From Diplonema japonicum (Eukaryota; Protista; Euglenozoa: Diplonemea), in contig OZ025663.1 of NCBI GenBank assembly GCA_964019335.1, forward strand, positions 496,001 through 560,000: a DNA stretch of 64,000 nt. The letters are read 5' to 3'. The position numbers and the translations under genes are program-made. Shown in pieces: positions 12,053 through 62,688 of this stretch; position 1 is the first letter of the stretch; each line of letters starts with the position of its first letter. Below the pieces are notes generated by a model. That model was not told the origin of the DNA, ran no database searches, and saw nothing but the letters and a program-made list of their open reading frames with translations.

Positions 12053-12627
12053 AATAGCTATTTATTGCCAACAAATAATGAGTCATTATTTAACTTGAGT
12101 TCCCGAATTTTTTGCACGAGGGCCCGCAGGGCCCGAGTGCAAAAAAACGGTAACGAGTGTTAAATAATGGCTCATTTGGCGGCAAGTAAGTCGTTTTATT
12201 TCACTTTTCGTCATTTGAGTCACTCACTCTTCACTGCTTTCACTGCTGTTTTTTTTCACGCAGGTCAGCTTTTTGGGGATTTTCCTAAGGTAATACAGGG
12301 TAGCTTTTTCGTCGTGGCATTTAAAGGGGAAGTAAGGCACTTATTCCCACTTTTAAGGGCTGGAATGGCCTCAGATGGCCAAAAATAGTCAAAATACCCC
12401 CACCCCAAAAAAAGATTTTCAAGGGGTTGGGTGCATTTTTTTCCACGACAAGACCCATTTTTTCACTCTGAAGGGCCATTATTTAACTGCAAAATCTCAT
12501 TATTTAACTAGTTAAATAATGGCGATTTCGCGTTAAATAATGGCCGTTTCGCGTTAAATAATGGCCATTTCGCGTTAAATAATGAGGCCCCTAGTGAGTG
12601 AAGAAAATGACGAAGAGTGAAATAAAA
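12053..12627 (+). mobile_element. Hairpin-ended non-autonomous DNA element, copy A (Crypton-like family)
   Basis: AATAGCTATTTA end and ~140-bp imperfect hairpin centred on GGGCCC-GCA-GGGCCC (12120-12134). 35-bp inverted repeats at 12194-12228 and 12593-12627. Tandem 21-bp GTTAAATAATGGC units. Homologous to 30944-31502. Confidence 0.8.
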
Positions 12628-27075: not shown

Positions 27076-27759
27076 TTTTATTTCACTCTTCAGAAATTAC
27101 TTCACGCACTGGGGGGCCCATTACTTCACGATAAATCTCATTACTTCACGGTGAAATAATGGCCTGTTTTCCGTGAAGTAATAGGGGGTTTGCGGTAAAT
27201 AATATGCCTCTGTAGGCCAATTTTTGCCTCGGTTCGGTTCCCAGTGGGGCTACTTCTTCCTCTCAGTTTGCTATTTCCCCCCAGGTTCAGCTCAATTGGC
27301 CAACTTTTGCCTCGGCTCAGTTCCAAGTTGGACTACTTTTTCCTCCCAATTTGCCCACTTTTGGCTAGGCCTTGTTCCCAGTTTCTGGGGGTAACTCTTC
27401 TGTGGGTAAGGGTAACTTAGTCAGCTTACCCAAGCTCCCCAAAAGACTTCAAAATACCTAAGCAGCAGAAAAAAAGGAGCCAGCGGCCGCGCCAGGTATG
27501 GGAAGGCCTGATTAGAGATGGTGACAGTGGCAATGCCAGCGACAGCGGCAGCTCTTAGTCAACAAAAGGAGGGAAAACAACTTGTATTGTAACCTTTGTA
27601 ACCCCTCTCTTGTTGTACCCCTTGTCACCCTGTTGTGCCCCTCGTGGTGAAGTAATTTCTGAGTGTCGTGAAATAAAACCACTTACCTACCGCCAAGTAA
27701 TGCTTTACCGACCTCGAGGTAACGGTAAAGTCATTACTTGTTGGCAGTAAATAGCTATT
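27076..27759 (-). mobile_element. Hairpin-ended DNA element, copy C (different subfamily, inverted)
   Basis: Reverse complement begins AATAGCTATTTACTGCCAACAAGTAATGA. Shortened hairpin at 27679-27759. Inverted repeats at 27076-27109 and 27644-27678. Repeated CATTACTTCACG motif. Confidence 0.75.
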
Positions 27760-28685: not shown

Positions 28686-29570
28686 AATTCTGTTAGGGTT
28701 TTTATTAACTAAGAACATTTTAGTTTAAAATGCGGTTTTTTTTTGTTTTTTTTTTTTGTTTTTTTTTTTTTTACCAATTGAATAAAGGGGGTTTGAAAAA
28801 AGGGAAAAAGAAAGAAAATAAAAGAAAGAAAAATATTTAAAAAAAAAAAGAAAAGAAAAAAAAAAGAAAAAAAGAAATCTCTATTACTGTAAATCGAAAG
28901 ATTTTCGTCAAGAAGAAGTGCCGAGGAGAAAAAAAAGAAAGAAAAAAAAAAAGAAAAAAGGAAAAAGACGAAAACTATATTGGGGTTCGTTTTACGTCAA
29001 GGAAAAGGCAGATTGCAAAAAAAAGAAAAGAGAAAAAAAAAACTTTTTTGAATGCTGTCGTTCTTTTCCCTTTTTTTTCTTTCTTTTTTCTTTTTTCTTT
29101 TTTTTTTTTTTTTTCTTTGCTGCTGTTGTCCAGTGTTTTTGTTTCAGAAATTTCCTGTTGATGCAAGACGCACGTACGTGCTGCGGCCGTGAAAATCGTG
29201 CGAACGAAAGAAAATAAGAAAGAAAAAGAAAAAAGAAAAACAAAAAAAAAAGAAACAAGTGTTCCAAGCTTCTGGCTTTCCTTGAGAATCAGAATACTGG
29301 TTTAGGGAGGGCAATATGCCCCCCTCTCCTACACACTCTCTTCCCCCTTGTGGCTTCAAAAAAAAAAAAAAACCCTCTTCCAAGATCTTAAATGGCTACC
29401 ACCAATAGGCACCCATTCCGTTCTTAAGGGTAAAGATTTTTTAAAATCTCACTTTTCTTTTTGGTTTGCATTTTTCCTTTTTTTTTTTTTTTTTTTTTTT
29501 GATAGTGTTCACGGCACTCACCAGTTTAAGTCCTTTCGGGTGTGAAGGTTTCTTTTTTTTTTTTTCTTTT

Positions 29571-29681
29571 GTTTTAACAATATTATTGTCGAGACTAAAA
29601 ACTAGTTGATGGCAGCGTAATGAGCTATTTTATTAGGTAGGATTCCGTTCGTGCGCACAAACAAGTGGAGCGCCAAACTAG
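29571..29681 (+). repeat. ~100-bp dispersed repeat, copy 1 (possible Helitron-like 3' end)
   Basis: Closely similar to 30106-30200; ends ...GTGCGCAC...AAACTAG|T in T-rich flanks. Confidence 0.6.
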
Positions 29682-30105
29682 TTTTTTCTTCTTGGAAGGG
29701 TGAATGGCCGGTGTGAACATTTGGCTTTAAAATACTTTTTTTTTTCTCTTTTGATTCTTGTTCTATATCCCATCCCCTTCCCCCCCCACATCTGTACTTT
29801 TTACTCTACACTTGAGTTTTCTTCCCCACCAGCCTTCCCCCCCCCATTTTTCCGTAAGGACAACAAGCCCTTTTGGACTGTAAAAATTAAAAAAAAAAAA
29901 AAAAAAAAAAGATACATTCTCTGACCAACCCGCAAGGTACCCGAATGCCAGAGATTGGATTCGACGACGCCCCCTTCCCCCCCCCCCCCCCCCCCCTCCT
30001 TCTTTCTTTCTTATTTTCCAGGCATAACCCAAGACCTACTCTCCCTTTTCTTCTTTCACTTGGGACCTAAGTACGAGGAAAAGAGTGTCCCCCCCCCACT
30101 TTTTT

Positions 30106-30200
30106 GTTTTAACAATATTATTGTTGAGACTAAAAACTGGTAGATGGCAGTGTGATGAGCTATTTTATTAGGTAGAATACCGCTTGTGCGCACAAACTAG
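30106..30200 (+). repeat. ~100-bp dispersed repeat, copy 2
   Basis: GTTTTAACAATATTATTG...TTGTGCGCACAA-ACTAG|T, matching 29571-29681. Confidence 0.6.
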
Positions 30201-30943
30201 TTTTTTTTTTTTTTTTTTTTTTCACAAATGACCTTTTTCTTATTATTCTTCAAGTAGGGACGTGTTTGCAGGGGAGGGGGGGGTGGGGGAGAGAAAAACT
30301 GAACCATAAGGAGATACACTACTAAGCAAATAAAAAGGGGGGGTTTTTTTTTTCTCACAGTGCTTAACGCAGCTTCAAAAAGCTGGGTTGGACCAAGACT
30401 CGCTGATGCTGGGAGGCCAGCCTACCAGCAACACGGTGTAAGAGATTTTTTCTTTTTTTTTTTCTTTTTTTTTTTTTTGCTGCGCACAGGAAAGGGAAGG
30501 GGAAGGGGGAAATTTTTTTTTTTTATGAGGTTTTTAACGGGAAACGAGGAAAATTGCTGTTCTCTCTCTTTCTTTTTTTTTTTTTTTTTTTTTTCCTTCT
30601 CTCCCCCTCCCCACTACACTTCACCATTTTTCTGTCCACATCTACAAGGGAGGGGAGGGGGAAGGAGGCGGGTTGCTGTCGAATTCCTTCAATTTTTTGG
30701 AGTTAAAAAGTACCCCAGTGAGATTTCCCTCCCTCACTCCCACCGTACTTGCTTTGGGTAGTTTGAGAGCCCCCCCCCCCCCCCCCCCCCCTCCTCCTCT
30801 TCCGCCTCTATTTGCATTTTTTTTTTGATTTCGATTTTTTTTGTTGTTGTCATGGGATTGAAAAGAAATATTTAAAAAAGAATATAAAAACAAAAAGAAG
30901 GAAAAAAAAAGGGGGGAGGGGGAAACATTAAAAAAAAAAAAGA

Positions 30944-31022
30944 AATAGCTATTTATTGCCAACAAATAATGAGTCATTATTTAAACCGAGTTCCCGAAAT
31001 CTTTTGCACGAGGGCCCGCCGG

Positions 31023-31059
<37 letters not shown>

Positions 31060-31323
31060 GGTAGCAAGTGTTAAATAATGGCTCATTTGGCGGCAAGTAA
31101 GTCGTTTTATTTCACCCTTAGTCATTTGTCACTCACTCTTCACTGCTGTTTTCCTCACAGGGACAGCTTTTTTGGGGGCTTCCCCTAAGGCAATAAAGGG
31201 TAGCTATTTCGCTGTGAAGTTTTAAAGGGAAGTAAAGCACGTATTCCCACTTTTAAGGACTGGAATGGACTCAGATGGCTAAAAATGGCCAAAAAATATC
31301 CCTCACCCCAAAGAAGTTTTCAA

Positions 31324-31358
<35 letters not shown>

Positions 31359-31502
31359 ATTCTTTTCACAATGAGACCTATTTTCTTTTCACTCCAAAAT
31401 CTCATTATTTAACCAGATAAATTATGGGCAAACAGCGTTAAAATAATGAGCCCCCCCCCCCCCCCCCAGTGAGTGAAGAAAATGACGAAGGGTGAAATAA
31501 AA
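30944..31502 (+). mobile_element. Hairpin-ended DNA element, copy B (same subfamily as A)
   Basis: Colinear with 12053-12627 throughout, with expanded A, G and C runs. Confidence 0.8.
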
Positions 31503-36068: not shown

Positions 36069-38122
36069 ATGCCCCCCTTTCAGGGATATGGCCCATCTGT
36101 TGTGCCATGCTACCAAGAGGCGTTGGCGAAGCTTAAGGAAGAGTTGATGCCACCATCGACTTATGTGAAGGCAACAGAGGCGTTGGGTGAGGTGGTGGGG
36201 GACATTTTGAAGGATTATGAGATGGTGGTGTGTGGCTCCTTCGCTCAAGGAACGGCGGTGGCGGGAAGCGACCTCGATGTGTCTCTCCTCCTGAAGGGCA
36301 ACACGGCAGGGGTGGACAGGACCCATGGAGTTCGGATCCTGGAAAAACTAATGGAAAAACTGAAAAAGACACTCCCCAAGGACTCTAACGGGTTGCAAGT
36401 GTCTGAAGCCGTTCTCACCGCGTCTGTCCCCATCCTACGGCTGCTCTACACCCCTGTCATCGGGGTTCACTCATCACTCCCCATCGACGTCTCTATCGGG
36501 AATGGCAACAGCGGGCAGCGTGACTCCATTGTCAAAGATATCCTACTGTGCAACCCCTCGGTCCTCCTCCCCCTCTCCATCATCAAGCATTGGACCAAAC
36601 GCCGCCATGTTGTCAAGGCTTATGAAGGCTTTCCGAACTCCATTTCGTGGTCGCTGCTATTCATTTGCCATTGCCAGCTTATCGGCCTTCTCCCACCCCA
36701 TACAGGCATACAGGGTTGGATCCCCAACCCCACCTGCCTCACGGAAGCCGCCATCCTGACGTCTTTCTTCGGCTTTGTCTTCCAATACTCCTCCGACGGT
36801 ACCTTTGCTGCATTTAAGTGCAGTGTCTCCTCCGGCTGCTTGCAGCAGCGTCCCCATGACAGCGGCGACAGCCCTCTCTGGGTGGCTGACCCCGTCGACC
36901 CCACTAACAATGTAGCGAGAAGCATTAAACCCCACCAGTGGTCCATCGCCGTGTCCGAAGCGAATAGAGCGTTCACGCTGCTCAGCAGCTTTTCACCTCT
37001 CACCGAGCTCCTTGCTGACAAGCTCGTCGACTCCACCAACAGCGACGAAGGGTCTTGCTCCGTAGACGAGGCATCCTCACTGGCGTCCCTTCCACTATCC
37101 GAGGAGCCCCCCACTGGGAGGGCACTGCTGTGGAATGGTGAAGCCGCCACCTTGTCGAAGTTTGAAACAATGCAATCTGCAAACCTTGTGCCTTCCGTAC
37201 CTGCTATGGTGGTACCGGCTGCGGCGTGTGTGGGGGACTGCGTGGTGGCAACAGGGTTGCAGAAAGAAGTGCACATCAACAACGCAAAGGGTGTGGTGGT
37301 GGAGAAACGGGAGGGCTCCTTGAAGCTGGTGGACTTCCTGGACCCCCCGCACGGGCGGCTTGTCATCGACACGGCCAACATCAAAGTGTTGGGCGCAGAG
37401 GCCGTGTTCCCGTTGAGCAGCATGGTGCAGGCGCATGGGCTGGTGAAGAATAAGAGTGTAAACGGGTGCAACGGGATCGTGGTAGGGCATGAGGAGGGGT
37501 CCGTGTTGGTGCAATTCCCGCAGCCGCACGGTGGGATGAGTGTGCAGCCGCGAAATCTGCTGCAGGTGAAGACGCAGATGCCGCCGTCGCCACTTGTCTC
37601 GTCGTCGGCCACTACTTCTACAACTTCCTCGGTGGGGCCGCGCAGGTCTTCTGTCTCATCTCTAACCTCCGACTCAGTCGACGTAGATGCGCCGCATAGC
37701 TCGCAATACGAGTTTGAGCTCCGCCCCACCACACCACCCACGTACTACTGCAAGGCGACAGGCACCACGTCGGCAACACCTCCTCCAGGTTATCACCACT
37801 GGCTAGGGACTACCCTCTTTCACCTACTTGCATACATGGGGCCAGAAGCACCTAAGGTGACGGGGATGCTCCTCGACGTATGTGCAAATAAAAAAAGGGG
37901 GGGGGGGGAATTATTATTCACAGGCATCTGCCGCAGACCCTTATAAAGTCTGGTCTCTTCTCTCATCTCCTAAGCAGCTGCGCGCTCAGGCAATGATCGC
38001 TGCTGCTCACATACACCATCACGCTTGCAGGGTGTGTGGAATAGAGTAAAAAAAATAGGGAAAAAAAAAAAACACAGATGCAAATGCAGCAGCCAGCACA
38101 GCCAAGCGTGAGACATGATTAA
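36069..38122 (+). CDS. Non-canonical poly(A) polymerase/TUTase (Cid1/Trf4-like) with two SH3-like repeats and C-terminal MLLE (PABC)-like domain; predicted introns 37878-37923 and possibly 38032-38077
   Basis: GSFAQG...SDLDVSL, IDVS, DPVDPTNNVARS; LGTTLFHLL...APKVTGMLLD/ASAADPYKVWSLLSSPKQLRAQ resembles MLLE. If the last intron is not spliced the stop is at 38049. Confidence 0.8.
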
Positions 38123-38173: not shown

Positions 38174-38499
38174 ACTGAAGTCGTTACGAGTCATAGGGCC
38201 GATTGCCAAAAAATCGTCCCACAATCGGCCTCATTTAGGAGGCTGGAGCCATGTTGCAAATATAAGCTTTATCCGGCTTTATCCGGTAGTCAAGGCCCTT
38301 ACTTCCATGGCGAGGGTCCTTCCCCGGGCATTCCGGTGGTGGGCCTGCGGTTGGTGTGGCCTCTCCGGCTACTACCCGGCCTATCCCTGCCCACCCGGTT
38401 TACCCCTACCCAAAGGCAAAAATACGGGGGTCCTGCTTAAGAAAAACTACCATAATCGGCCTAGGCGATTATGACTCTATGACTCATAATGACTTCGGT
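38174..38499. mobile_element. MITE, possibly PIF/Harbinger-like
   Basis: ~23-bp imperfect TIRs ACTGAAGTCGTTACGAGTCATAG / CTATGACTCATAATGACTTCGGT; flanks TTG and TTA. Confidence 0.55.
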
Positions 38500-38518
38500 T
38501 TATGAACAGCAAAAAGAA

Positions 38519-39480
38519 AATAGCTATTTATTTGCAACAAATTATGGCCATAATCTACTCGAGAATCGTGGGTTTTTTGGCCGAGGGCCCACAGGGCCCG
38601 AGGTCAAAAAAAACGGTTCGAGAGTAAATGGGATGGCCATATTTTGGCGCAAAGTAAGTAATTTTATCTGATAGTTCAGAAATTGAGTCACTCCGAGTGA
38701 CCGAGAAAGTGGGCCAAAAACCCAAAGCCAAATTATGGGCTATCAACTGTCAATAATAGCTATCAAATTATGAAAAACGGCCTATTTTTAGCTGATTCAG
38801 GCGGAAGTACGGTGACCCAACACATTTTTAGTCCCCCAGGCAACCCTGTTGACCTGTGACATGGCACCTTTCCAGGTTGTAGAAAACAAACAAAGCACGG
38901 TACAGCAAGAAGCGGTTCAGCGGCTCAGATCCAGGGCACTCCATAGACATGAGCTCCTCGAGATCCTCCTGTTCGAAAGTAGATGCTTTCGTCGGGGCCC
39001 TTGTGCTTCAGCACGCTTGCAAAAAAGTTTGACACGGTCCTATTCCCCAACCTTCTGGTTGCACTTTTCCTTAAAAACTGCCCTATTTGGGAGTTCTTGG
39101 TTCAAAGAGAAGAAGGGGCCGTTTTTCTTCAGCTTCCTAAGATGAGCGACTTCAGTTTCTTCGTCTTTTCCCCACGAAAGTCAGCCCATGTTTTCAGGTA
39201 CTGTGCTTTGCTTATTTCGGGTAGAAGACTCTCTTCTTTCTTCGTTTTCGGCATTTGATGTTTCTTTTTTTTGATGATCTTGAGCTCAAATGTGTTAAAA
39301 AGAATTTCACTCTGCCCCCAATAATGTCACTTTCTCCCCTATAATTTGGCAGCCACAGACCATTAACACCTAAGTCTTGCCCATAATTGAGCTATCAAAT
39401 TATAGCCCGGATTATCAAATTATGAGAGGGGGGGTAATCAGATAATAGGAGTGAAGAAATTTCTGAACTATCAGATAAAA
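38519..39480 (+). mobile_element. Hairpin-ended DNA element, copy D, carrying a tyrosine-recombinase remnant
   Basis: AATAGCTATTTA end, hairpin with GGGCCC-ACA-GGGCCC, and 33-bp inverted repeats at 38662-38694 and 39448-39480. Confidence 0.8.
38860..39254 (-). pseudogene. Frameshifted N-terminal fragment of a Crypton-like tyrosine recombinase
   Basis: Minus-strand pieces MPKTKKEESLLPEISKAQYLKTWADF, APSSL*TKNSQI, VKLFCKRAEAQG and PTKASTFEQEDLEELM...VFYNLERCH resemble LLPxxSxxxY, STLWxxYS, PKKSxxFxxEE and the first catalytic Arg region. Confidence 0.6.
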
Positions 39481-39863
39481 AAAAAGGTAGGGGGGGTGTG
39501 TGGTCTTCTTCGGAAGAAGGGTTGGGGGGGTGGGGGGGGGTTCGTATTCGTTTCTTCAAAATTTTCTCCCTTTTTTTTCCCCCTCCCTCTTTTTTTTTTT
39601 TTTTTTTTTCGTGTCCATAAAAGGGTGGCGTTTCCAATGGCCCCCTCTCTTCTTTTCTTTTTTCCTTTTTTTTTCAACCGCGAGTCTGTATCATATCAAA
39701 ATCAATGAAGGGGATAAGAAAAAATATTGATTGGAGGACGGCTTCTTTAAACACTTTCATTTTAAATCTAGTGGCAGACATAACACTTGTGTGTGTGGGC
39801 AAGAACAGACACTGGAGGTCGAGTTGAGCTCGTCCCATGGGAAAAAAAAAGGAGGGGAAAAAA

Positions 39864-39936
39864 TGCGAGGTGCCAGGATCGAACTGACGACCTTAGGATT
39901 ATGAGACCTACGCGCTGCCGACTGCGCCAACCTCGC
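39864..39936 (-). tRNA. tRNA-Met(CAT), elongator type
   Basis: GCGAGGTTGGCGCAGTCGGCAGCGCG-TAGGT-CTCATAA-TCCTA...GTTCGATC...CCTCGCA; G1-C72, TTC in T-loop, T-run terminator. Confidence 0.92.
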
Positions 39937-41243: not shown

Positions 41244-41325
41244 GGCAAGATGGCCGAGCGGTCTAAGGCGCTACGTTCAGGTCGTAGTCTCTTCGGGGGC
41301 GTGGGTTCAAACCCCACTCTTGTCA
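41244..41325 (+). tRNA. tRNA-Leu(CAG)
   Basis: 82-nt cloverleaf with long variable arm, CTACG-TTCAGGT-CGTAG, GGTTCAAACCC and TTTT terminator. Confidence 0.95.
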
Positions 41326-49437: not shown

Positions 49438-51867
49438 ATGCCACCAAAAGGCCGAGGTGGAGCCTCCACGAGGGCGGTTCCTGGGCAGGCTCCTCCAAAA
49501 GGGGGGTCTGGCGAATCCACCAGGCAAGGAGAAGCGGTGGGCGACCTAGCCGGCAGGCTGGGGATGGGCTGGAAGGTCCAAGACGTGGGGAGGAGGCCGG
49601 GAGACTGCTTGTATGAGGCAGCCTCATACGCGGTGCACGGAGCGCGAGACGGGGCCGCTGCCCTAAGGGAGGCAGTGGCGGCAGACCTGGCGACGAAGGA
49701 CTTCTCGTCCTTCATGATTGGAGAGGACCCGGAGGGGGCGTGGAAGGAGTACCAGCGGCTGGTGGCTCTTCCGGGGACGTGGGGAGACCGGATGGCGGTG
49801 AATGCCCTGGCGCGAGCCATGGGCCGCGTGATCTGTGTGTACGCGGTCCGGGACGACCGCCTGGTGTGCACCACCTCCAGGCCGGTGGGTGGGATGGTGA
49901 CCACACAGGAGCTGTGGCTAGGGTATGTGAGAGACCACTACGTGTGTCTCAGCAGGGAGGAAGGAGCGAGGAAGCCGGACGCAGATGAGTATGAGCCGAG
50001 GCCGAGATACCCCATTCCTCTACGCAGCGTGGCCAAGGGTGGTTCGAAGCCCGAGAAGAAAGAAGTACGCAAGCCCGTCGAGGGGTGCCTCGATGGAGAT
50101 GAGTGGCAGGTCCACGTGCAGGAGTGGCAGGGCCCGGAGACGGTGCAAGAGCGCGCGGTGTACCTGGTGCCGAAGGGTGATGAGCGACAGGCGGCAGAGT
50201 GGCTGAAGGGGACGGCAGCGGCGACGGTGGTTTCCTGGGGACGATTACCCTACTTCTGCGGTAAGATGGCGGAGGTCCTCCTGGTGACAAACGAGGGACG
50301 TGGCAAGACGTACAGGCGCCTGTACGTGACGGCAAGGCACGGCGACCCGGCAATGCCCACTAGCGAGACTGTCGAGGACATGGAGGAGACGGAGGAGAAG
50401 GAGCCTGAGCCCACGTGCACTGCAGAGCTTTTTCTCCTGGCGCAGACGACGCAGGACGCCGAGAAAGCTCGGCCGCGTCTGCTGGCATGGCTGAGAGAAC
50501 GCGCAGGGAGGTACCTCGCTAAGAGGGGCAGAAAGAAGGACGGTATTTTAGAAATACCGATCACGGTAAAGAAGGAAGACGTTAAGGCGATCCTAACGCG
50601 CAGCGGAGAGGACGGCGTTTTCGTCAGGCAGCCTTGGGAGGCGCGTGACCTGCTGCCAGTGATCTGGCTGGAGAACACGGCTCTGAAGGTTGCCCTGAAG
50701 ATGAAGAATGACATCGGCGGATGGGGTTTGACCCTGAAAAAATCGAGCAAGACTGTCACGTACGGCGTTCGGGTGCCAAAGGACGGACTCAACACCGCAA
50801 GGCAGATCCTCAAGGACCGCCATGCAGATCTGAAGACAACAGCGACCGCCGTAGACCTGCTAGAGGGTGCCCACTACGAGGTGCAGGGAGTCCCGGTAGC
50901 AATGAACGGGCTGGAGCTCGAGGGCAAGCTGAGCCGTTCCGGGTGGCCAGCAACGGTGAGGAAGAAGCTGCACAGGCATGGTGGCAGACAGACGTGGGTG
51001 GTGACTGCGACGACCGAACCAAGGAGCTTGGTGTTGACAGTCCAGGGAGTGAGGTGGGCCATCCAGCCGATGGAAGGGGACCTGCTGAGGGTGGGCAAGA
51101 ATAAGAAGAAGAAGGAGGTGAAGAACACGCCGGTCTTCACCTTGCCGCCGAACGCCGTGTGGGGAAGACAAGCTGGGCCAGCACCGAATCCAACTGCAGC
51201 ACCCCAACCGGGAGTTCAACCTCAACCACAAGCGACCGAGACACAGCAGCCTGGGCAAGCGCAGCAGTCTGGGCAGTCGACGCATTTCTGCAAACCGCAG
51301 ACGACACCGGTGATGCAGGCGCCGGCGTCGGCACCGCCATCTGCGACCTCCGGTACCGCATCCACCGACCAGTTCGTGGAATGGGCGCGAAGGATGGAAC
51401 TGGAGAACGAACAGGAGAGGAAGACCATGGAGGCCCGGCTCGTCGACATGGAGAGGAAGAACGCGTCGACGGCCAACCTGTTGATGTCCGTGCAACAGAA
51501 CGTGCAAACGCTGAGCGAGCAGATGGGAGTGATGGCTGCACGTCTGGAGCAATTGGACGTGATTGCTTCTGCGGTGAACAACCTCGCACAGGCGGTGGGC
51601 TCAATCCAAAAGGAGATGCAGGCACAGGCGAAAGCGGCAAGGAAGACAGGCGGGAAGAGGAAGTGCGAGGACGAGCCGGGCAACAAGAAAGCGGCCTCAG
51701 GTGCCCTTGTCCCCACCGCTGGAATAGGCAGGGAGATGACGCCGATGATCATGCCCAACAGCACCCCCCTTTGTGCCGCGGCAGCTGGCGGGACACCTGT
51801 GCAGCAGCAGCTAACCCCGATGGTCGCCCCCCTGGCTGTCCAGGACATCGACACCGAGTTCAATTGA
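49438..51867 (+). CDS. Retrotransposon ORF1 with N-terminal OTU cysteine protease domain and C-terminal coiled coil
   Basis: PGDCLYEAAS...LREAVA...GTWGDRMAVNALARAMGRVICVY...LWLGYVRDHY (OTU Cys and His boxes). Confidence 0.85.
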   Translation: MPPKGRGGASTRAVPGQAPPKGGSGESTRQGEAVGDLAGRLGMGWKVQDVGRRPGDCLYEAASYAVHGARDGAAALREAVAADLATKDFSSFMIGEDPEGAWKEYQRLVALPGTWGDRMAVNALARAMGRVICVYAVRDDRLVCTTSRPVGGMVTTQELWLGYVRDHYVCLSREEGARKPDADEYEPRPRYPIPLRSVAKGGSKPEKKEVRKPVEGCLDGDEWQVHVQEWQGPETVQERAVYLVPKGDERQAAEWLKGTAAATVVSWGRLPYFCGKMAEVLLVTNEGRGKTYRRLYVTARHGDPAMPTSETVEDMEETEEKEPEPTCTAELFLLAQTTQDAEKARPRLLAWLRERAGRYLAKRGRKKDGILEIPITVKKEDVKAILTRSGEDGVFVRQPWEARDLLPVIWLENTALKVALKMKNDIGGWGLTLKKSSKTVTYGVRVPKDGLNTARQILKDRHADLKTTATAVDLLEGAHYEVQGVPVAMNGLELEGKLSRSGWPATVRKKLHRHGGRQTWVVTATTEPRSLVLTVQGVRWAIQPMEGDLLRVGKNKKKKEVKNTPVFTLPPNAVWGRQAGPAPNPTAAPQPGVQPQPQATETQQPGQAQQSGQSTHFCKPQTTPVMQAPASAPPSATSGTASTDQFVEWARRMELENEQERKTMEARLVDMERKNASTANLLMSVQQNVQTLSEQMGVMAARLEQLDVIASAVNNLAQAVGSIQKEMQAQAKAARKTGGKRKCEDEPGNKKAASGALVPTAGIGREMTPMIMPNSTPLCAAAAGGTPVQQQLTPMVAPLAVQDIDTEFN

Positions 51868-54800
51868 AGTGCGGACTGGGACGTCCGGAGGGACGTCCAG
51901 TCGGGTGGCGCCAGGGACCCCGATTCGCTCATAATCACCACACTCAATGTGGGGTCCCTGAGCAACAAGGTTGACGAGGTCCTGGCTATGGGGAGCGACG
52001 TGACATGCCTGCAGGAAGTGAAGCTGACGGAGCACGGTCAGGAGATGGTTGGGAGACACGTCGAGGACGACGGTAGGTATCGCGCGTTGTGGGGGAGCCC
52101 GCAACCAGGCATCGTGGTCGATGGACTCGCGTCTCCTGATAAGGCGAAGAGGGGCGGGGTGGGTCTGCTGGTGCAGCGACGCCGACCTGCTCTGGTAAAA
52201 GATACGGCAGGAAGAGCTGACGACAACAGGTGGGTACACTCGATGATCAACCTAGATGGTCGAGATATGTGGTTACACCTGATCGTAGTCTACTGTCACT
52301 CGGGCGGTCACGGCAAGCACCAGCGGGAGGCTCTGCTGGATAAGGTCCTGAACAAGATGAGATGCGTCCTCGGTGACGTACCGATCATCGTGGCAGGCGA
52401 TTTCAACACCGCGGTGTCACAGTCGGGAGTGCTACAACAGGCGGTGGGGAGCGATTGGGTGGATGCTGCTATGCTGCAAGCCGAGAGGGATGGCGTGGAA
52501 CCATGCCACACCTTTGCCAGGCAGGCCACCAACACGAAGACGCGTATCGACTACGTTCTGCTGAACCCGATCGCGGCGGCAGGCCTACAGAAGGTGTGGG
52601 TACACGACGCAGTCTACACCAACGAGCACCGCTGCCTCTCAATCCAGCTCCGGATCCCGGCCCTCAAGTGCATGACGAGGAAATACTTCGTCCCGAGGGA
52701 GTTGCCGATGGAAGCTGCTGATGGTGACCGAGTTGCTGAGCTGCTACAGGTCGGGGGATTTGCGCAGAAGCTGGGCGACGGCGACATTGACGATGCGTAT
52801 AGTACGTTAGCGTGCGTTTCGGAGGAATGCTGCATCGGGGACCTGCCAGCGGTGAGACGGAGGGCCTACGTCGGGAGAAGCGTGGCGCGACAACCAAAGG
52901 AGAAGTGCCTGTCGGCGAAATCTGTGGTTGAGGCGACAGGTGCGGCAGTGGGCTGGCAGAAGTGCATCGCCGAGGTGAAGCGGAAAGTCTCGCACATCCT
53001 TGCGGGAGTCCAAGATTTGCTCGACAGGGGACTAGCAAGCAACATGCCGGAGCAGCTGCTGAGGACTTGGGCGAATGCTATAAAGGTGTTAGCGAAGCTC
53101 CCGCAGCTTCCGAGATGCGAGGTGGGTCTGATGAAGGACAATTTTGAAACGATTATCATCAAACTTCAACGCCTAGACGACGACCTGTCCGCTCTGGCGC
53201 GAGTGATCGCAAAGGACGCGAGGGTCGAGCGTGAAAGGAAGTATGAAGAGAGGATCAACACCCACTTCAAGGAGGAACGGAAGAGGGTGACCGCCTTCGT
53301 GAAGGGCACAACGGCATCAGCAACGCAGGCAGTGGAAGGCGACGGGGTTCTCACGGCAGATCTTGAAGAGATGGACAAGATGATGCACAAGGAGTGGGAC
53401 CCTATTTTTCAGCTGTACGGTGGGGATCGAGGAGAGCCGCAGTACAACGCCTTTAGAACGAGGTACAGGGAGTACATCGTGTCGCAGAAGATGGAACTTC
53501 GACCACTTACAGGAGAGGATCTGAGGGCGGTGTTGGCCAAGAAGTCAACGAGAACGGCTCCAGGGGTGGATGGATGGAGGATGGCGGAACTGCGTGCCAT
53601 GCCGGTAGTACTGCTGGATGCTTGGGCCGAGCTGTTCAACGCAGTCGAGACGACAGGGAAGTGGCCGAAAGCACTCCTGACAGCGCTGGTGACGTTGATC
53701 CCGAAGGGTGGCGAGAGGACTCCTCTGAACCATCGGCCGATCACAGTCACGAGCGCGGTCTATCGGCTGTGGGCATGTGCGAGGCTGCGTGACATCACGC
53801 TGTGGCAAGAGAAGTGGATCGACGACTCTCAGCATGGTTTCAGACCGAAGAGAGGCACGGATAGCATTCTGATGGAGCTCAGTACACAGCTCGAAGAGGC
53901 GCTGTTGACAGGCACCCCTCTCAACGGCATTGCGTTGGATTTTGTCAAGTGCTTCGACAGAGTCCCACAGCAGATAGCTTTTGGCCTGATGCAAGATCTC
54001 GGTTTGCACGAGCGGATACTGACCCCCTTGAAAGCTATGTATGCGAACCTGAAGCGGCGATTCCGTTTCCCGACAGGTGTTGGCTCAGAGTTCCGAGTGA
54101 CGAATGGTATCCTGCAAGGGTGCCCCATCTCGGTAATCATGGTGAACGCCTTGGTGTCGGTGATGGTGAAGTGCGTGATGACGGAAGTACCAGGAGCTTG
54201 GTCACTTTCGTACGCGGATGACGTGTACCTCCTGGCGCGTTTAGCGGAGGTCCTGACAAGGGCGACCAACAAGGTGATCGAGTTCGGGGACCGGACAGAG
54301 ATGCGCCTCAACGGAAAGAAGTCGCAGGGATTCTCGACGAAAAACGAGATCGGCCCTAGTTTAGTATGCACCGGTTCCTCGTTCAAGGTAGCTGGGGAGA
54401 TCAAATCACTTGGCGTGAACCTGAGCATGGATGGGAATCACAGGCTGGACAAGCTGGACGCAGCGGAGGGACGCCTGACCCGTCTCGGAGCTTTGCCACT
54501 AGGGTTTGAGAACAAGTCGACGATGTTGACGAGCACTGTGCTACCGTCGTGTCTGTACGGAGCAACGTATGCGGCACCCTCGGACGACCAGCTGAAGAAG
54601 ATGTGTACAGCGGCAGTGGTCTCCCTGTGGGGCCCCCAGTTCGGGATGAGAAACCCCGTGTCTGTACTGAGCGTTCTGCTGCCAGGGCATACGGCACATC
54701 CGCTGTCGAAGGTCATCTACGGAACGATAAACAGCTTGGTCCGGGAGAGCCTGGCCTCTCCGCGTTTGCGGCAGCGTGTTGGTGAGATCATTGGTCTATA

Positions 54801-55986
54801 CCAGGACCGTGATGACGATGAGGTGATGGGTCCGATTGGAGTCCTGCGGAACAGATGGCTCCCCTTTCTGGGGAAGGGATGGTCCTTTGTGGCCGACCTG
54901 CACGGAGATACAGCGGTGGCTCACAAAGTGAGGCAAGCCATCAGACCGGCAGTTGCGAAGAGGCTGATCGAGAAGAGATCAACCTTCGTGGGGATGGAGG
55001 CAGGGGCGTGCCCGTCCACGAACTATTGGTGGAAAAAGCTCCAGGCCCGGAGACCGTTGGTGTCCTTTAGGTTGCGGCGCATCATTAGTGGTGCAGTGTT
55101 CACGACTCACCCGAGGGTGTGGGGGAGAAAATTGGATGGCCCTGGTGTGGAAAACCCAGCATTAGCGTGTGACGTTTGCGACCACCGGTCCCAGACAACG
55201 ACCAGCATGACGGAGCATGCACTGTGGGAGTGCGAGCCGGCAAGGAGTGTGTTGGAAAGCGAGCAATACGCAGAGGTGAAGCGAGAAGGCCTCCCAGCTG
55301 CCACAGCCCTTCACGGGATAGTCCCAAGAGGAGCCGACAAAGCAGGGAAAGAACGTGCCAGGATGGTGCAACAATACCTCCTGAAAGTAGTGACGGTCCG
55401 TGACGCCAGAGCAGCGGAAAAAAGCAAGAGAGTGCTCACCTCCAACCCTTGGGATGAGGTAACGACAGGGAGGCAACATGATGTTCCGACGGAAGCGTTG
55501 CTGAAGGCGAACGGGGCGTCAGGCGCGGTCCTGACCTTTCATCTGAAGAACGTCCTCAAGTGGCTAAGAGGCCTACGATGGTACGATGGTAAGAAGAAAA
55601 CTTCCGTCACTACAATGGAACTCGCCATAGACTATGAGCAGACCACCCGCCGGTCACTCATAGGTCCCCTCGACGATCAGGACCTGCTCACGGAGAAGGC
55701 CGCAAGGATGCGATACATCTTGGGTCGCATCCAGAAATGCTCAGCACGCTGTGGAAGGTCAGCCTTCCCCGCCAACGCCAAATCAAGGGTGCATACCCTT
55801 CGACATCTTGGGGGCCCGACGGCACACGGCTACGACAGGAGACCACTCTTCTCCTCGAGCCAAACCCCCCCCTACCTAGCACGACTCCAAGCAGTGTTTC
55901 TCGCCCAGATGCCGTCCATCTCATCGCGACAAACAGCCACCGCAGGCACCAGACAGCAACCGCAGAACGGTGACCGATTAGTGTGA
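51868..55986 (+). CDS. Retrotransposon ORF2: APE endonuclease, reverse transcriptase, C-terminal zinc finger
   Basis: TLNVGSL, CLQEV, AGDFN, RIDYVL; APGVDG, QHGFR, LDFVKCFDRV, GILQGCPIS, YADD; CDVC...EHALWEC. The frame is open directly from the ORF1 TGA. Confidence 0.95.
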   Translation, partial: SADWDVRRDVQSGGARDPDSLIITTLNVGSLSNKVDEVLAMGSDVTCLQEVKLTEHGQEMVGRHVEDDGRYRALWGSPQPGIVVDGLASPDKAKRGGVGLLVQRRRPALVKDTAGRADDNRWVHSMINLDGRDMWLHLIVVYCHSGGHGKHQREALLDKVLNKMRCVLGDVPIIVAGDFNTAVSQSGVLQQAVGSDWVDAAMLQAERDGVEPCHTFARQATNTKTRIDYVLLNPIAAAGLQKVWVHDAVYTNEHRCLSIQLRIPALKCMTRKYFVPRELPMEAADGDRVAELLQVGGFAQKLGDGDIDDAYSTLACVSEECCIGDLPAVRRRAYVGRSVARQPKEKCLSAKSVVEATGAAVGWQKCIAEVKRKVSHILAGVQDLLDRGLASNMPEQLLRTWANAIKVLAKLPQLPRCEVGLMKDNFETIIIKLQRLDDDLSALARVIAKDARVERERKYEERINTHFKEERKRVTAFVKGTTASATQAVEGDGVLTADLEEMDKMMHKEWDPIFQLYGGDRGEPQYNAFRTRYREYIVSQKMELRPLTGEDLRAVLAKKSTRTAPGVDGWRMAELRAMPVVLLDAWAELFNAVETTGKWPKALLTALVTLIPKGGERTPLNHRPITVTSAVYRLWACARLRDITLWQEKWIDDSQHGFRPKRGTDSILMELSTQLEEALLTGTPLNGIALDFVKCFDRVPQQIAFGLMQDLGLHERILTPLKAMYANLKRRFRFPTGVGSEFRVTNGILQGCPISVIMVNALVSVMVKCVMTEVPGAWSLSYADDVYLLARLAEVLTRATNKVIEFGDRTEMRLNGKKSQGFSTKNEIGPSLVCTGSSFKVAGEIKSLGVNLSMDGNHRLDKLDAAEGRLTRLGALPLGFENKSTMLTSTVLPSCLYGATYAAPSDDQLKKMCTAAVVSLWGPQFGMRNPVSVLSVLLPGHTAHPLSKVIYGTINSLVRESLASPRLRQRVGEIIGLYQDRDDDEVMGPIGVLRNRWLPFLGKGWSFVADLHGDTAVAHKVRQAIRPAVAKRLIEKRSTFVGMEAGACPSTNYWWKKLQARRPLVSFRLRRIISGAVFTTHPRVWGRKLDGPGVENPALACDVCDHRSQTTTSMTEHALWECEPARSVLESEQYAEVKREGLPAATALHGIVPRGADKAGKERARMVQQYLLKVVTVRDARAAEKSKRVLTSNPWDEVTTGRQHDVPTEALLKANGASGAVLTFHLKNVLKWLRGLRWYDGKKKTSVTTMELAIDYEQTTRRSLIGPLDDQDLLTEKAARMRYILGRIQKCSARCGRSAFPANAKSRVHTLRHLGGPTAHGYDRRPLFSSSQTPPYLARLQAVFLAQMPSISSRQTATAGTRQQPQNGDRLV
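51874..51902 (+). promoter_or_regulatory. Candidate stop-codon readthrough stem-loop
   Basis: GACT(G)GGACGTCC-GGAG-GGACGTCCAGTC: 12-bp stem starting 6 nt after TGA 51865-51867. Confidence 0.55.
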
Positions 55987-56417: not shown

Positions 56418-59400
56418 ATGAAACTGAAGGTGATAAACGCCTCTGACAAGCAAGAAGTGGAAATTGAAAAATCGCTGTTCAAAACAAAGGAAGAGCTGAG
56501 AGAATTGATACGGAATGAGTTCAAAATAGATAGCGGGGCAGAGGTGAGGGTAGTGGATCTAAAGGGCGAAGACGTTGACGAAGAGTACGACGGTGTGTGT
56601 GTGGCCGTGACAGGTGCGATGGGGACGAACGGGGAAGCGTTATTTGATATGGGCGTGGATATCACACCTGACGTCGATCTGTTGATACAAAGCGGAGATG
56701 ACTACGACATGGTGACAGCGATTGCAGAGCTGCTTGACAACTCCATCCAGAACACCACAGGGCAGCAGGAGCGTGATGTTAACGTGACGTTTGCAAGGCC
56801 GTCGCGTATACTGCCTCCCAACAAGATTGTTGTTTTTGACAACGGGCGGGGGATGACCCTCGACGCCCTCAAGAACTGGGCCGTCTTGGGCAAATCCAAC
56901 AAAGACCGCGAACAGTACTCAAACGTCTCGACTACACCCGCCACCCGCCCCAGCCGCCTACTCCGTAAGGAAGGTACCGGTCTCTCCTCCTGGGCCTTCT
57001 CGTGCGACACTCGTGTCTCCGACTACCTCACCTCTGACTTCTCCCGCTACGGAGTGGGAAGCAAGAAAGCTGTTTTCTCTCTTGGTGACACTGTAACTGT
57101 AACCACGCGTGTCAAAGGCTCGCCTTGGGTCAGTGAATGCTCTCTCTCCCGCGACTCCATCAAACAGAACGGCTGGAAAACGACGCTCAAAGCACGTGCC
57201 CCCACCCAACAGGAAGCTGCGAAGTCTTCGTTCACATGCTTCATCATCACAGACCTCAAGCAGACGTACAAAGAAACTTACACCACTGACTACATGGTCA
57301 GCTGGCTAGCGCACCTCTACCATTACTACATCCACGGCCCCAGGGGGAACACTATGCAGTCTGAAGATGCAGATGATGAACTGAAAACCAGCCGCGGTGC
57401 CAGCTTCACGCCAGTGAATATCACTGTCGACGGAGTCAACGTGAAGGGCTGCACCATTGATTCCGAGACGCTGCAGCTGCACAAAGGGACCGAGAAGGTC
57501 ACATTTGACTTCATACTGGGCAGCGATAGGACAAAGCTGTATGAGAACACACCCACATCGCTCATGAGAGCGGCCCCCAAGCGGACCGACGGGCTGACGC
57601 AGGGCGAAGCAGAGGGACAGCCGTCGCAACCTAACCTAACGGCGGAGCCATTGGCGCCTATAATTAAGGTCGTGCTGCAGTACTTTCCCTTCAAAGACGG
57701 TGTGGAGACGATGCCCATCCCCGCAGGCTTTTGCAGCGAGGTGGACGACGAGAAGCTCCCACTGTGCGACAGGAAGCCTGGAATGGAAGTGTTCTGGAAC
57801 GGCCGTCTGCTTCCTCGAGAGTTCATCGAAGTGTGGCCCTTGCTGCGCAACACGCTGAAGAAAGACGATGACATCCCTGCCGCGTGCTTCCGACGTGTGA
57901 AAGGCATGATCTTCCTCGATTCGTCTTTCGAAGTGACTGCGAACAAGCACTGTCTTTGCAGGGAGACGCCCCTTGCAAAGGCGATGCTGCAGTACAACAA
58001 TCGCACGACCAACCAGTCGATCAGGAAGTGGATCCGGTATTGCCACAAGCAGCATGACGAGGAGCTCATTTTCGGCGATATTGACAAAGCGAAGATGAGG
58101 GGCGACGGTACTTTGTACTACAAGTCTGTGAAGGTCACGAACCTGTACATTGAGCACGGCACATATGTACTGTCGAAGCAGCCGACTGGGCGGGGCAAGG
58201 TCATTGGAAAGGTGGTGTCTATCTTCACGAACCACAAGCTGTACGAGACGGCGCACGGTTGCCAGCTGACTCTGCGTGTCTCGTATTCATCTGCAAGCAG
58301 CTCGGGCGACCTGACGGTCCCTGTAGGACTCTTGCAGAAAGTGCTGACCAATGAAGAGGCAGAGGCAGAGATTAAAAAGGCGAAGAGGAGCTATCCAGTG
58401 AAGCTTGTCGTAGAGGGGCTGACGAAGACGATGCCTGCGACGGACGAACCCGAAGGGAACATGAAGGTCACCATGTGCACGGAGGAGAACAAGGTTCTGA
58501 ACAAACCAGGCACGCTGGAAGTGACTGTGGCTGCACTGCCGAACACAGGGGGGAAGGTGATGGAGCCAGTCTTTGTGCAACACGTGTTTAAACCGTTGGG
58601 AAAGAAGAACTACTTCTCGTGCAGCCTGGAGGACTTGAAGGAGTACGCACCTGACTTGTTCACCTTTGCAGGGAAGTACACGTTCCAGTTCAAGTCGTCC
58701 GTCGCGACCATTGCACCGCTGGAGGTCGTCATGAACGTTGTAGCAGACGCGAAGAAGATACAGAGCATCAGCAGCTCATCTGTGATCGCAGCCACTGTGG
58801 ACAAGGAGCTCTCTGTCATCGATCTACACGTGAAGGACCGTTTCGGGAACCCCCTTCCCTACGATCTGTTTGAGAAGAAGAAGCCAAGGATGCAAGTCAC
58901 CACCACGGTAAAGACCCTTACCGTGAACACTGATAACATAACACTGAAGTCCATTTCAGGTGGAATCCGTGTGTCAGGTTTGAAGCTGACCGGCCTTCTT
59001 GGAGCGGAATCATGCTCCCCTACCTCCCTTTTATTCAATTTCAGCAGCAAAGAGTGCGCAGTTGACATTGCGGGAATTTCTCCGGGCAAGGCCTCTGATG
59101 TGAAAGTTTTGATATGTCCCAAGCAAGTTGGATGGAAAGAAGCTTTCAAGGTCGTGTTGTGTCTGCAGGACTCTTATGGCAACCCCACAACTGGTGCTAG
59201 TCAGGACATTGTTTGCGAGCTCAAGCTGGGCGGGAACGCAAAGCTGTCGAAGGTGCAGTCAGCAGATCTGTCTTCGGAGAACACGTTCGTCTTCGATGAC
59301 GTGGCCGTAACACGGCCTCCTAAGCAACCCATGCCCACTGAAGATTTAGAAATTACACTGCAAGCGAACATCTTCTACATCGTAAAGGGCAAACACAAGG

Positions 59401-62400
59401 CCACGTCCCTCTCTACCCCTATGCAGCTCCTCATCAAGCCGCCTAGGTCGTTCCCTCATATCCTGCTTGAAGGACCCGGTATTGTGCACACGAGCCCGTT
59501 GGATACCACAGTGCAGGCTGAGGTTGGCACTGATACCAGTGCTGTCGCCGTGTTCCACAACCCTCCTACTTGGGTAAAGAGTGCCATTGTGAAATGCAGC
59601 TGGGCTGAAGGTGCAGTGCACCGGTTTAAAGTGACGAAGGAGCAAATGTCTCTAGAGCTGCCTGTGATAACCGCCCCCACAAAGGAAAGCAGAGTGTGCC
59701 ATGAGATCATCATCCACAAAAAGGACGACGAGACGGAGAAGATAGAACACAAGCTGAGCATCACATACTCGCAGGGCGCACCTACCAGCATTAAAATAGT
59801 TCAGATCCCGGACAAGGTGCAGCCAGATCAAAACTTCTCCATCCAGTGCAAGGCTGTCGATCGTTTTGAGAATGAGTTGCCTTGCAAGCATCCGGATCTC
59901 AAGAACTGCACGCTGAAACTGGTTATTGTCGATGGGAAGTGCGATCTGCTTGCAGAAGGCGACACCAAGGCCAGAGAGAACACATGGAGCCTTGCTAAGT
60001 TAAAGGTGACCGGAAAGAGCGGCGTTACAAAGTTCAAGATAGTCGCGGAAAGTGCGTCAATCGAGTCTCCGGAGTTCACGTTGGACGTGGTGCCTGGGGA
60101 GCCGTGTGCAATCACTATCGACGGAAAGCAGCGCACGAAGGAAGACCCCTTATGCTTCAACGTGGAGAACATGGGCCTGCTGAAACCTGTTAGGGTGGGT
60201 CTCGTCGACAAGTGGGACAACGAATGTGTCTTGGGAAAACGTAAGATAGTGATGGAGTGCCCCGGTGATGTGAAGCTGCTCCGCACCACCAAACAAGCTG
60301 TCATGTGGGATGGGCGGCTGGGTGTCTTCACTCCCTCGTTCCTAGCAATCTGTAAACCCGGGCAAGGCACCACCTCATCGAATGCCATTCTGAACCTAGA
60401 TGATCTCCCCGACGATATCATCAAAGGCTTCATTAATGTGAACTGCACGCTTGGGCAGCTCCCGTGGGACGTGCGTCTGACGCTGAAGGACAGCACACAT
60501 CTTTGCGACGTTAAGGACAAGGAGTGCCAGCCTGTGAAGGCAGGCACACCCCTTGGTGAGGCTGCGTGCATCGAAGTTCTTTGTGAAAACGGCACACCAT
60601 GCAACAGCATCCCCACAGACAGAGTCGCCCTACACGTCATCTCACAAGCGCTGCATTCACCTGCGACCTTCCCGGGCCCCCCTGAACCTTCTCAAGCCCG
60701 TTCGGGTGGGCAGGCTCCACCAGTAAAGGTCACCTTCAGCGAGCTTGAAAAATTCACTCCAACTGGCTCAGGGGTGTACACTGTCTTTGCCGAGCTTGAC
60801 CTTATGTACCACAAGTACAAGGACCATTTGGAGAAGATCAAGTGCTTGAGGCGCAGGGTGGAAGTGTTCCACTTCACCGTAATACATACAAAACCTACGA
60901 TGATGAAGTGCAAGGTGTTCAAAGAAATACAGGTGAAGAAGAAGAAGAGGAGTGTGAGCAACAGCAGGGGTTCGCCCTGGGCAGACTCGCACCACCTTGG
61001 GGGTGTGGCATCGAATAAGGCTGTGTTCGAGTCCCTTGAAGTAAGGCTGCTGGATGAACATGACAACTTGTGCACCTCGTGCGATGGACCTGTCACACTT
61101 ACCATCCAGCAGTACGCAGACGGACGTGGCGCGACTCCTGCTAAGTTGGCACCCGTTATCGAGGACCCACCTTCTGTTGTGTTTGCCAACGGGGAGGCAA
61201 ACATTCCTGAGCTGAAGCTGGGACCAAACAAACGCGGCGCACCCGAAGGCTCGTACTGTTTGCACATAGCGCACAAAGGAGTGCAGCCCATCATGCTGCC
61301 CTTCCAGTTCACCGATGACGCCATTAAGGAGAAACAGCTCGCGGAACTAGGTGAGAAGATCAGGGAGTGGGTTGCCTACCAGCATTACCTGGAAAAGAAG
61401 CTGAAGAAGTTCAGCATGTTCAGAGCAGAGCGCGACGAGATAGAAGGTATGCCGACACAACGCAGCAACACGCACAGCGAAATGGGACTCGCGCATGAAG
61501 GAGGTCCAGGACGAGATGCTACGCACCAAGAAGTTGAAGTCCCCAAACTGGGCGACGTTCGACCCACAAGAACTGGCGAAACAGACCCGAAGCGCGCTCG
61601 GCAAGATGGAGGCAGAAGCAGCGTCAGAAGAGAAGTCGGGTTCAAAGAGGCGAAAGAAATACTTCTTTCAAGATAAGCACAAGGGATTACAGATGATTGC
61701 AGATGCAAAGAACGCGGCAGGGAGTGGTGTGGTGGGGGTGGTGGCGGAGATCGGGTGGTGCAGGGACGAGAGAATCGATGCGACAATCTCGAAGACACTG
61801 GGAAGGTACATGCAGACAGTGGTTCTAGAAAATAGCAAAGCGGTAGTGAAGTGGAAGAAGCAGCTTGCCAACCTCCCATCGAACCAACAGCTCGCACTGC
61901 TTTCGTTGGACAACTTCTCAAAGGTAAGCCTCGACGAGGACGGGAAAGTGGCGTCACTCCCGACACCGAACCCGAAGCCCAAAGGGTGGGTGGGGTATGC
62001 AGTGAACCTCGTGGAGCTGGAGGATAAGAACATCTTTTTGCGACCGGTGTTTTACAACCTGCTGGGGAACAAGGCTGTGTTTGACTCAATCGAGAATGCC
62101 CGATCGTGGCGCCAGTCGCTCTTAAGCAGGGGGAGCAAGGTCCCGCACATCACCTGTCTCGATGGAGAAAAGATGGAACAAAACGGAATTGAATGGGCAG
62201 GACAACAACATGCGGATGCTGGGTTCAGATTCGGTGCGATGCCCGCATGTACGACTGACAAGTACAAGAGCGTCCAAAGGCTGCACAACTTGCTAGAGAC
62301 GTATGCTGAGCTGCAGGTGGAGAGGAAGGAGGAAAAGGCAAAGAGAGCGTCTGTTGATCCCAAAGGGGAAGAACCACAACTGCGAGCCAAGCTTGCAGAG

Positions 62401-62688
62401 GTTTGCACCATGATTAAAGGCATGAACAAGCTAATGGACACACCGATAGAAAAGGTCACTACATCTGGAATCGAAACGTTCATGAATGAAGCGATTCCCC
62501 AAACCTCGCAAGCACCGCAAGTCTCCGGTAAGAAGCGTCGTGCACCTTCTCCTTCCTTTGCGGACTCTGAGTCCGAACCTTCGGACACAATTCAGGACGC
62601 TGACGATCCTGTCCTCATACAACCCAGAGACCCCCTCCCGTCTCAAACTGTCCCAGTCAGCAGGCACAAGAAGAAGAAGCGAAATTGA
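56418..62688 (+). CDS. SMCHD1: SMCHD1/GMI1-like protein (GHKL ATPase, long beta-rich region, SMC hinge), ~2079 aa; intron 61447-61477
   Basis: AIAELLDNS, DNGRGM, YGVGSKKAVF, FWNGRLLP; hinge GVVGVVAEIG...GYAVNLV...VFYNLLG...CLDG. A 31-nt GTATG..CAG intron joins the two ORFs in frame. Confidence 0.88.

Follow-up and report, generated by a model that had tools for sequence, protein, structure and literature searches.

The window analysed here, meaning the whole stretch of DNA under study, spans 64,000 nt of the Diplonema japonicum contig OZ025663.1 (positions 496,001-560,000, forward strand). It is laid out as long intron-free open reading frames, predominantly on the plus strand, with homopolymer-rich spacers. 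Of five window proteins looked up in EukProt, two are present there, as expected of a protist host. Comparison of the window with itself revealed four related elements, hereafter copies A to D:

12055..12623, plus strand: copy A, with no gene and with the end design seen in D
27080..27757, minus strand: copy B, with no gene, a shortened hairpin and the junction design seen in D
30946..31498, plus strand: copy C, a relative of A in which a poly-A run disrupts the hairpin
38521..39476, strand unassigned: copy D, 956 bp, non-autonomous, with ends common to A, B and C

Copy C is 79% identical to A over 415 nt, and D matches A at 75% identity over 187 nt at the left end only. The A/C pair, B and D have the ends alone in common and differ in their subterminal 8-mers, so that they may use different but related recombinases. 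Each family has its own 8-mer, repeated at offset 19 and near the ends, where it occurs nine times in A, four in B, five in C and four in D, against 1-4 occurrences in the other 61 kb. In copy A, a second long palindrome near the right end (12455-12584) consists of seven copies of the A 8-mer.

All four copies have A-runs at both sides, with a TTTT mirror inside each; those flanking D lie at 38517-38520 and 39477-39485. Read on the minus strand, these are T-runs at both ends of every copy, and insertion is next to TTTT without duplication. Copies A to D appear to be inserted into A-runs, with no other target duplication. The ends of D are confirmed by contigs from public sequencing runs, in which other copies diverge at 38519 and at 39479/39485. 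The structural features of the D ends are as follows:

38521..38531, plus strand: left terminus TAGCTATTTAT, which has four occurrences in the window, one opening each copy
38531..38653, plus strand: long imperfect terminal hairpin, identified by self-comparison and folding
38582..38602, plus strand: hairpin tip, which a tandem GA/GA mismatch closes on the top strand (CGAG...CGAG)
38662..38694, plus strand: internal mirror of the A-run and right terminal arm, complementary to 39448-39480
39448..39476, plus strand: right terminal arm, forming the asymmetric inverted repeat, with the A-run immediately after it

The inverted repeat of D is 33 nt long (38662-38694 / 39448-39480, 91% complementary). 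Across the copies the repeats measure 33-35 bp, and their distance from the end is 140-142 bp for A and D, 80 for B and 160 for C. When the right arm, AAAA and the left end are joined, all four copies are predicted to fold into one hairpin of 170-230 nt, with top-strand z-scores of -16.4 for D, -15.5 for A, -9.5 for B and -6.1 for C (60 shuffles each). The top-strand fold is 3-6 kcal/mol more stable than that of the bottom strand in every case. In the 20 bp adjacent to the junction, 19 positions are paired in D, all of them Watson-Crick, compared with 18 in A, 18 in C and 10 in the gapped alignment of B, where pairing without gaps is weak (10/20). D and A differ at nine places within these 20 bp and pairing is kept in eight; between D and C it is kept in nine of nine. 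Compensatory changes of this kind in inverted repeats also arise via gene conversion or selection on double-stranded binding sites.

The pairing is interrupted at defined positions. The first 8 nt of the left terminus face 5 nt of the mirror, forming an unpaired loop beside the A-run, and a G without partner lies two pairs beyond this loop. An AA/GC mismatch occurs in register in all four copies, an AGA/GAG bubble is found in D and A, and the GA/GA tip lies at offset 61 in D and 62 in A, being missing from B, where the arm is shortened, and from C, where the poly-A run intervenes. The 8-versus-5 register and the tip recur in a metagenome locus, L004, described below: the register is present in all five elements (A, B, C, D and L004), and the L004 tip is at offset 62. 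While the arms drift, mismatches are kept: D and A both have AGA/GAG, these two and L004 have GA/GA, and AA/GC is found in A to D.

Ends of this general kind have been described for Helitron2 elements by Bao and Jurka (2013, PMC3627910), which combine a one-sided terminal hairpin with asymmetric terminal inverted repeats, compensatory changes, and insertion adjacent to T-runs without duplication. The copies could accordingly be read as non-autonomous Helitron2/Helentron elements carrying a piece of Crypton gene as cargo and mobilised by a RepHel protein, a reading we regard as weak and quite improbable. Helitron2 repeats are given there as 8-15 bp long and 20-30 bp from the end, whereas here both repeat and hairpin are longer, the repeat being 33 bp at about 140 bp. 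Pfam searches of 24 frames (three from the D coding part only, then 21 more across A to D) returned no match to RepHel, HUH, DDE or RT, the HUH/Rep-helicase and DDE enzymes having been proposed at the outset as what would argue against a tyrosine recombinase (YR); all four copies are deleted derivatives. An Rfam search over the element found just the adjacent tRNA, and none of the RNA datasets listed holds the element.

The coding remnants of D lie between the inverted repeats:

38882..39254, minus strand: N-terminal half of a decayed YR gene, covering profile columns of about 18-143 of 362, with in-frame stops
38880..38886, minus strand: position at which D lost the catalytic Arg box through a deletion of ~33 nt and at which sibling copies read G-L-R-V-T-E
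38778..38879, minus strand: tentative further YR remnant reaching the catalytic Lys region, with GTKN and two more frameshifts

The remnant starts with an ATG at 39254 on the minus strand. The original prediction had placed three recombinase peptides here, and all are present as described, in two frames: LLPEISKAQYLKTW (39227-39186) and APSSL*TKNS (39119-39090) share one, and the second holds PTKASTFEQEDL, which begins at 38995, and the ERCH that terminates at 38861. The gene points toward the long hairpin, as had also been proposed. Two further pieces, VAHLRKLKK and RAVFKEKCNQ...KLFCKRAE, occupy the third frame. Frameshift-aware alignment placed shifts near 39177, 39125, 39084 and 39007 and a gap over the Arg box. 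Inclusion of the stretch 38778..38879 reduced the score from 38.4 to 33.4 bits in the fourth alignment setting.

The reference for these alignments was a profile of 81 relatives of the L004 protein, each at least 325 aa long, representing a single YR group. Over eight runs (four settings, with the APSSL columns kept or masked) D scored 13.5-41.8 bits, and in all eight it exceeded the best of 200 local shuffles and the best of 204 other window bins, with z-scores of 6.2-9.4, these settings having been picked after a strict local setting came out weak. Whole-region or milder settings chain all D pieces in order across profile columns 18-143; the stricter local setting aligns the first piece alone, at 23.7 bits against a maximum of 23.2 among 300 shuffles (P about 0.001). 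With hmmsearch the first piece ranks top of 432 six-frame window segments, at an E-value of only 0.36. With hhalign the three frames match the profile at E-values of 0.0016 for the first, 0.019 and 0.17, the last belonging to the third frame alone, whose match is misplaced and non-significant. The frameshift-aware alignment and hhalign together bear out that the fragments represent the core-binding region of a Crypton-type YR and the beginning of its catalytic domain, and D is very probably a Crypton-type YR element.

Taken one by one, the D frames gave no significant match in Pfam (three frames), PHROGs (three frames), the PDB or viral contigs, and a search of 5.8 billion proteins with two frame pieces confirmed 0 of 1 and 0 of 81 candidates. 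A phage tblastn match at E 0.7 was rejected, as it falls inside an unrelated 571-aa ORF. Among viral contigs and prokaryote genomes, the YR alignment gave no locus that could be confirmed, and the D end motif occurred at no locus in metagenome contigs. Matching columns between D and the insect YR profile number about 35 of 125 by hand count, so D is no recent transfer. No YR remnant was detected by frameshift-aware alignment in A, B or C (12-16 bits, at background level), and the presence of YR sequence in just one of the four window copies is what a Helitron2 with captured cargo could show.

Sibling copies of D were examined in contigs of 7 of 13 listed public runs, aligned to D and with indel variants translated by hand. 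In run X1, contig depth rises from ~640 at 39702-39849 in the flank to 12,700-37,300 in the D coding part and to 141,000 and 340,000 at the D ends, which points to many copies but gives no copy number. Three of the four frameshifts of D are restored by siblings, each restoring indel being adjacent to a predicted shift: +2 or +5 at 39117 links KKNG to AAPS(S)LWTKYS, with Trp in place of the stop, and the two frames that follow are recovered by +1 at 39083 and by +4 or +1 at 38993. No listed variant restores the first shift, near 39177, where the copies listed have gained 12 or 14 nt. A contig from run X12, labelled as another organism, matches D over 325 nt with eight differences and no gaps, so the frameshifts of D are common to other copies.

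In runs X2 and X5, from two studies, 37 letters replace 4 at 38880-38885 and encode in frame ALFVVCGFFRGLRVTE-NNLERCH, in which G-x-R-x-x-E is the YR box with the catalytic Arg; runs X11 and X3 carry this box out of frame. Its presence in siblings and absence from D indicate that D has lost the catalytic Arg. The Arg of ERCH is therefore not the catalytic residue, the catalytic box being deleted from D at 38880-38886 with ERCH downstream of it. The X5 contig with the Arg box continues straight into the left end, so the listed siblings, too, are without the His-x-x-Arg and Tyr half. Judged by its sequence, D is unable to mobilise anything, the catalytic Arg box, H-x-x-R and Tyr half all being gone. 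Copy D belongs to an abundant multi-copy DNA transposon family and is itself gene-dead. The listed sibling contigs contained no autonomous copy, the first Arg alone being seen of the R-H-R-Y set, and neither a circle junction nor an empty site was among the listed joints of these contigs, which drop rare forms.

The sibling pattern APSSLWTKYS occurs at nine metagenome loci and at none in viral contigs. Eight of the nine were rejected as chance matches, and the ninth, L004, is a lightly decayed insect-type YR element (1578 bp, 36% GC). Its YR gene (L004 61-1390, with one stop and one frameshift) encodes GACRCDEL, DTKTK, GHCLRRS, HGGWKS and EGYL, which supply R, K, H-x-x-R, W and Y, the full YR catalytic set, and it matches Pfam PF00589 at E 3e-14. 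The L004 protein retrieved 825 relatives, of which the best 120 all have PF00589, and the named members among those 120 are insects. An intact 363-aa YR in public assemblies, P0003, is 96% identical to the L004 protein.

L004 opens with TAGTTATTTAT, matching the left terminus of the D family. The terminus, the CGAG-stem-CGAG tip and TTTTAT lie at offsets 0, 62 and 134 in L004, compared with 0, 61 and 141 in D and 0, 62 and 139 in A; the terminus is absent from the other nine loci (31 kb). The L004 end folds at a z-score of -9.2. Of ten outside loci, it came first under a model derived solely from D and A (23.3 bits, rough E 0.007), and since L004 was found via a protein motif, the match of its end is independent of how the locus was found; the link is a single locus, found with a motif from D's own family. 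The right end of L004 lies outside its contig, where the best mirror match is 16/32. Because an element with the full YR set shares the left-end motifs and their spacing, these ends very probably belong to YR elements and not to Helitrons: under the cargo explanation, an unrelated YR-only element of ~1.6 kb would have the same end motifs, and two independent captures are unlikely. The claim that a YR mobilises copies A to D thus stands in part, the same end design occurring on an element with a complete YR set, while D itself is dead and an autonomous copy was not found.

A YR together with an internal region complementary to joined ends is also characteristic of DIRS-like retrotransposons, whose inverted termini and internal complementary region follow the same logic as the mirror (PMC13465315). 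D could on that basis be an internally deleted DIRS-like YR retrotransposon whose mirror served as the internal complementary region for circularising cDNA. We consider this weak and very improbable: D has only one terminal end repeat, copies A to D lack an RT match, the ORFs of L004 comprise YR only within its 1578 bp, with no RT or RNase H, and the YR of D matches insect YR-only proteins.

The closest counterpart of a Crypton-type D appears to be CryptonI. Apparent resemblances lie in the YR as sole gene, small size, abundant deleted derivatives and the lack of a classical TIR or target duplication, and D aligns to a YR profile whose named members are insects. CryptonI-1_RPro measures 1657 bp and its derivative 709 bp (PMC3212892). 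According to Kojima and Jurka (2011, PMC3212892), CryptonI is found in insects only and no terminal repeats are reported in 50 copies; among the rows of supplement 1 covered (two of four), its termini are entered as 'n.d.'. D differs from CryptonI as described there in its protist host, its 33-bp asymmetric inverted repeat and its 120-bp hairpin. We infer that D works like a non-autonomous CryptonI, taking the insect proteins to be probable CryptonI members. L004 suggests that the hairpin has been overlooked in insect elements. A literature search by titles and the starts of abstracts, with Repbase and most subscription papers outside its reach, returned no Crypton with this end design.

The folded end also resembles the attC sites of integrons. 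According to PMC2727003, attC is a long imperfect hairpin of one strand in which an unpaired spacer lies beside a short paired box and the bulged or mismatched bases are not the same on the two strands; the choice of strand depends on the bulged bases and the unpaired spacer. Unlike attC, the present site is eukaryotic, is associated with A-runs as target, is dominated by G-A mismatches and would form only once the ends join the internal mirror.

Taking D to be a Crypton-type YR element, we slightly favour a single-strand route, on the analogy of attC. The top strand would become single-stranded during replication, allowing the left arm to fold and the right arm to pair with the mirror, which would bring the two A-runs together. 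One YR strand exchange between the A-runs would yield a single-stranded circle with the long hairpin as its junction. The AAAA/TTTT box, the 8-versus-5 loop, the bulged G and the G-A mismatches would tell one strand from the other, as they do in the attC sites of integrons. The circle would then insert through a single exchange with a double-stranded A-run, and replication would resolve the product, giving copy gain without target duplication. Mobilisation would be in trans, by an unseen intact YR. Chlamydomonas Cryptons, according to PMC9977147, excise cleanly yet gain copies, which would fit a single-strand route. For the combined reading, in which D is a dead, internally deleted Crypton-type YR element and an intact relative, recombining one folded strand, likely moved it in trans, we judge the evidence to be evenly poised.

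The strong rival is the standard Crypton model of a double-stranded circle formed by YR recombination between short A-run repeats, which we hold to be possible but distinctly less probable. It is the published model (PMC3212892; PMC13565253), and Crypton movement is said in the latter to lack experimental demonstration. Under this model, the YR would bind the mirror and hairpin as double-stranded arrays, or would use them as a second, inverted site for flipping the interior. The yeast 2-micron plasmid offers a parallel, since FLP flips its interior through an inverted second site. Family-specific 8-mers recur near both ends as binding arrays would, and the gene points toward the hairpin in D and away from it in L004, as inversion between inverted repeats would give. 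The double-stranded model nevertheless leaves unexplained the same-strand, same-offset mismatches of G-A type in protist and insect-type ends. Nor does it account for the mismatch in core length, 8 versus 5, between the two inverted sites: by the spacer rules of Cre and FLP, cores that do not match would hinder a duplex exchange between such sites.

A broader extension of the single-strand route is more tentative, falling somewhat short of an even chance. CryptonI-type elements would occur both in insects and in a protist lineage, with a folded single-strand site in common almost base for base (the TAGYTATTTAT terminus, the CGAG/CGAG tip at 61-62 nt and the mirror of the joined ends), making them a eukaryotic integron-like system in which the recombinase swaps one folded strand into A-runs. 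If true, this would explain the copy gain of Cryptons despite clean excision. An end structure common to a protist family and an insect-type element defines exact test substrates (folded top strand, bottom strand and duplex, with an A-run target), and P0003 is an intact candidate enzyme. The end design also offers a criterion for classifying hairpin elements that carry no gene and would otherwise be entered under Helitron2.

Several other features were noted in the window. A separate small element (38176-38498) lies 20 bp left of D, with imperfect terminal inverted repeats of about 28-40 bp; contig depth is raised at its ends, some copies skip 38232-38470, and it is likely a MITE of another family. 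Adjoining D, the reading frame at 36069-37946 (plus strand) encodes a non-canonical poly(A)/terminal nucleotidyltransferase whose C-terminus matches MLLE weakly. Genes for tRNA-Met (39864-39936) and tRNA-Leu (41244-41325) lie 390 bp and 1.8 kb from D; no tRNA gene is near A, B or C, so tRNA targeting is not indicated. At 2135-2385, two back-to-back tRNA-Cys genes, one on each strand, make up an inverted repeat of 102 nt, and a 100-nt direct repeat (29567-29666 / 30102-30201, 90% identity) is spaced by 535 nt with an AT-rich spacer. An intact non-LTR retrotransposon (49438-55986, plus strand) encodes an OTU-domain ORF1 and an endonuclease-RT ORF2 that share a frame; a single stop at 51865-51867 separates them, and the next ATG follows after 40 open codons. 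At 56418-62688 (plus strand), an ORF of 1752 aa overlaps one of 397 aa; the two, which a frameshift may have split, resemble by eye the ATPase and hinge regions of a protein like SMCHD1.
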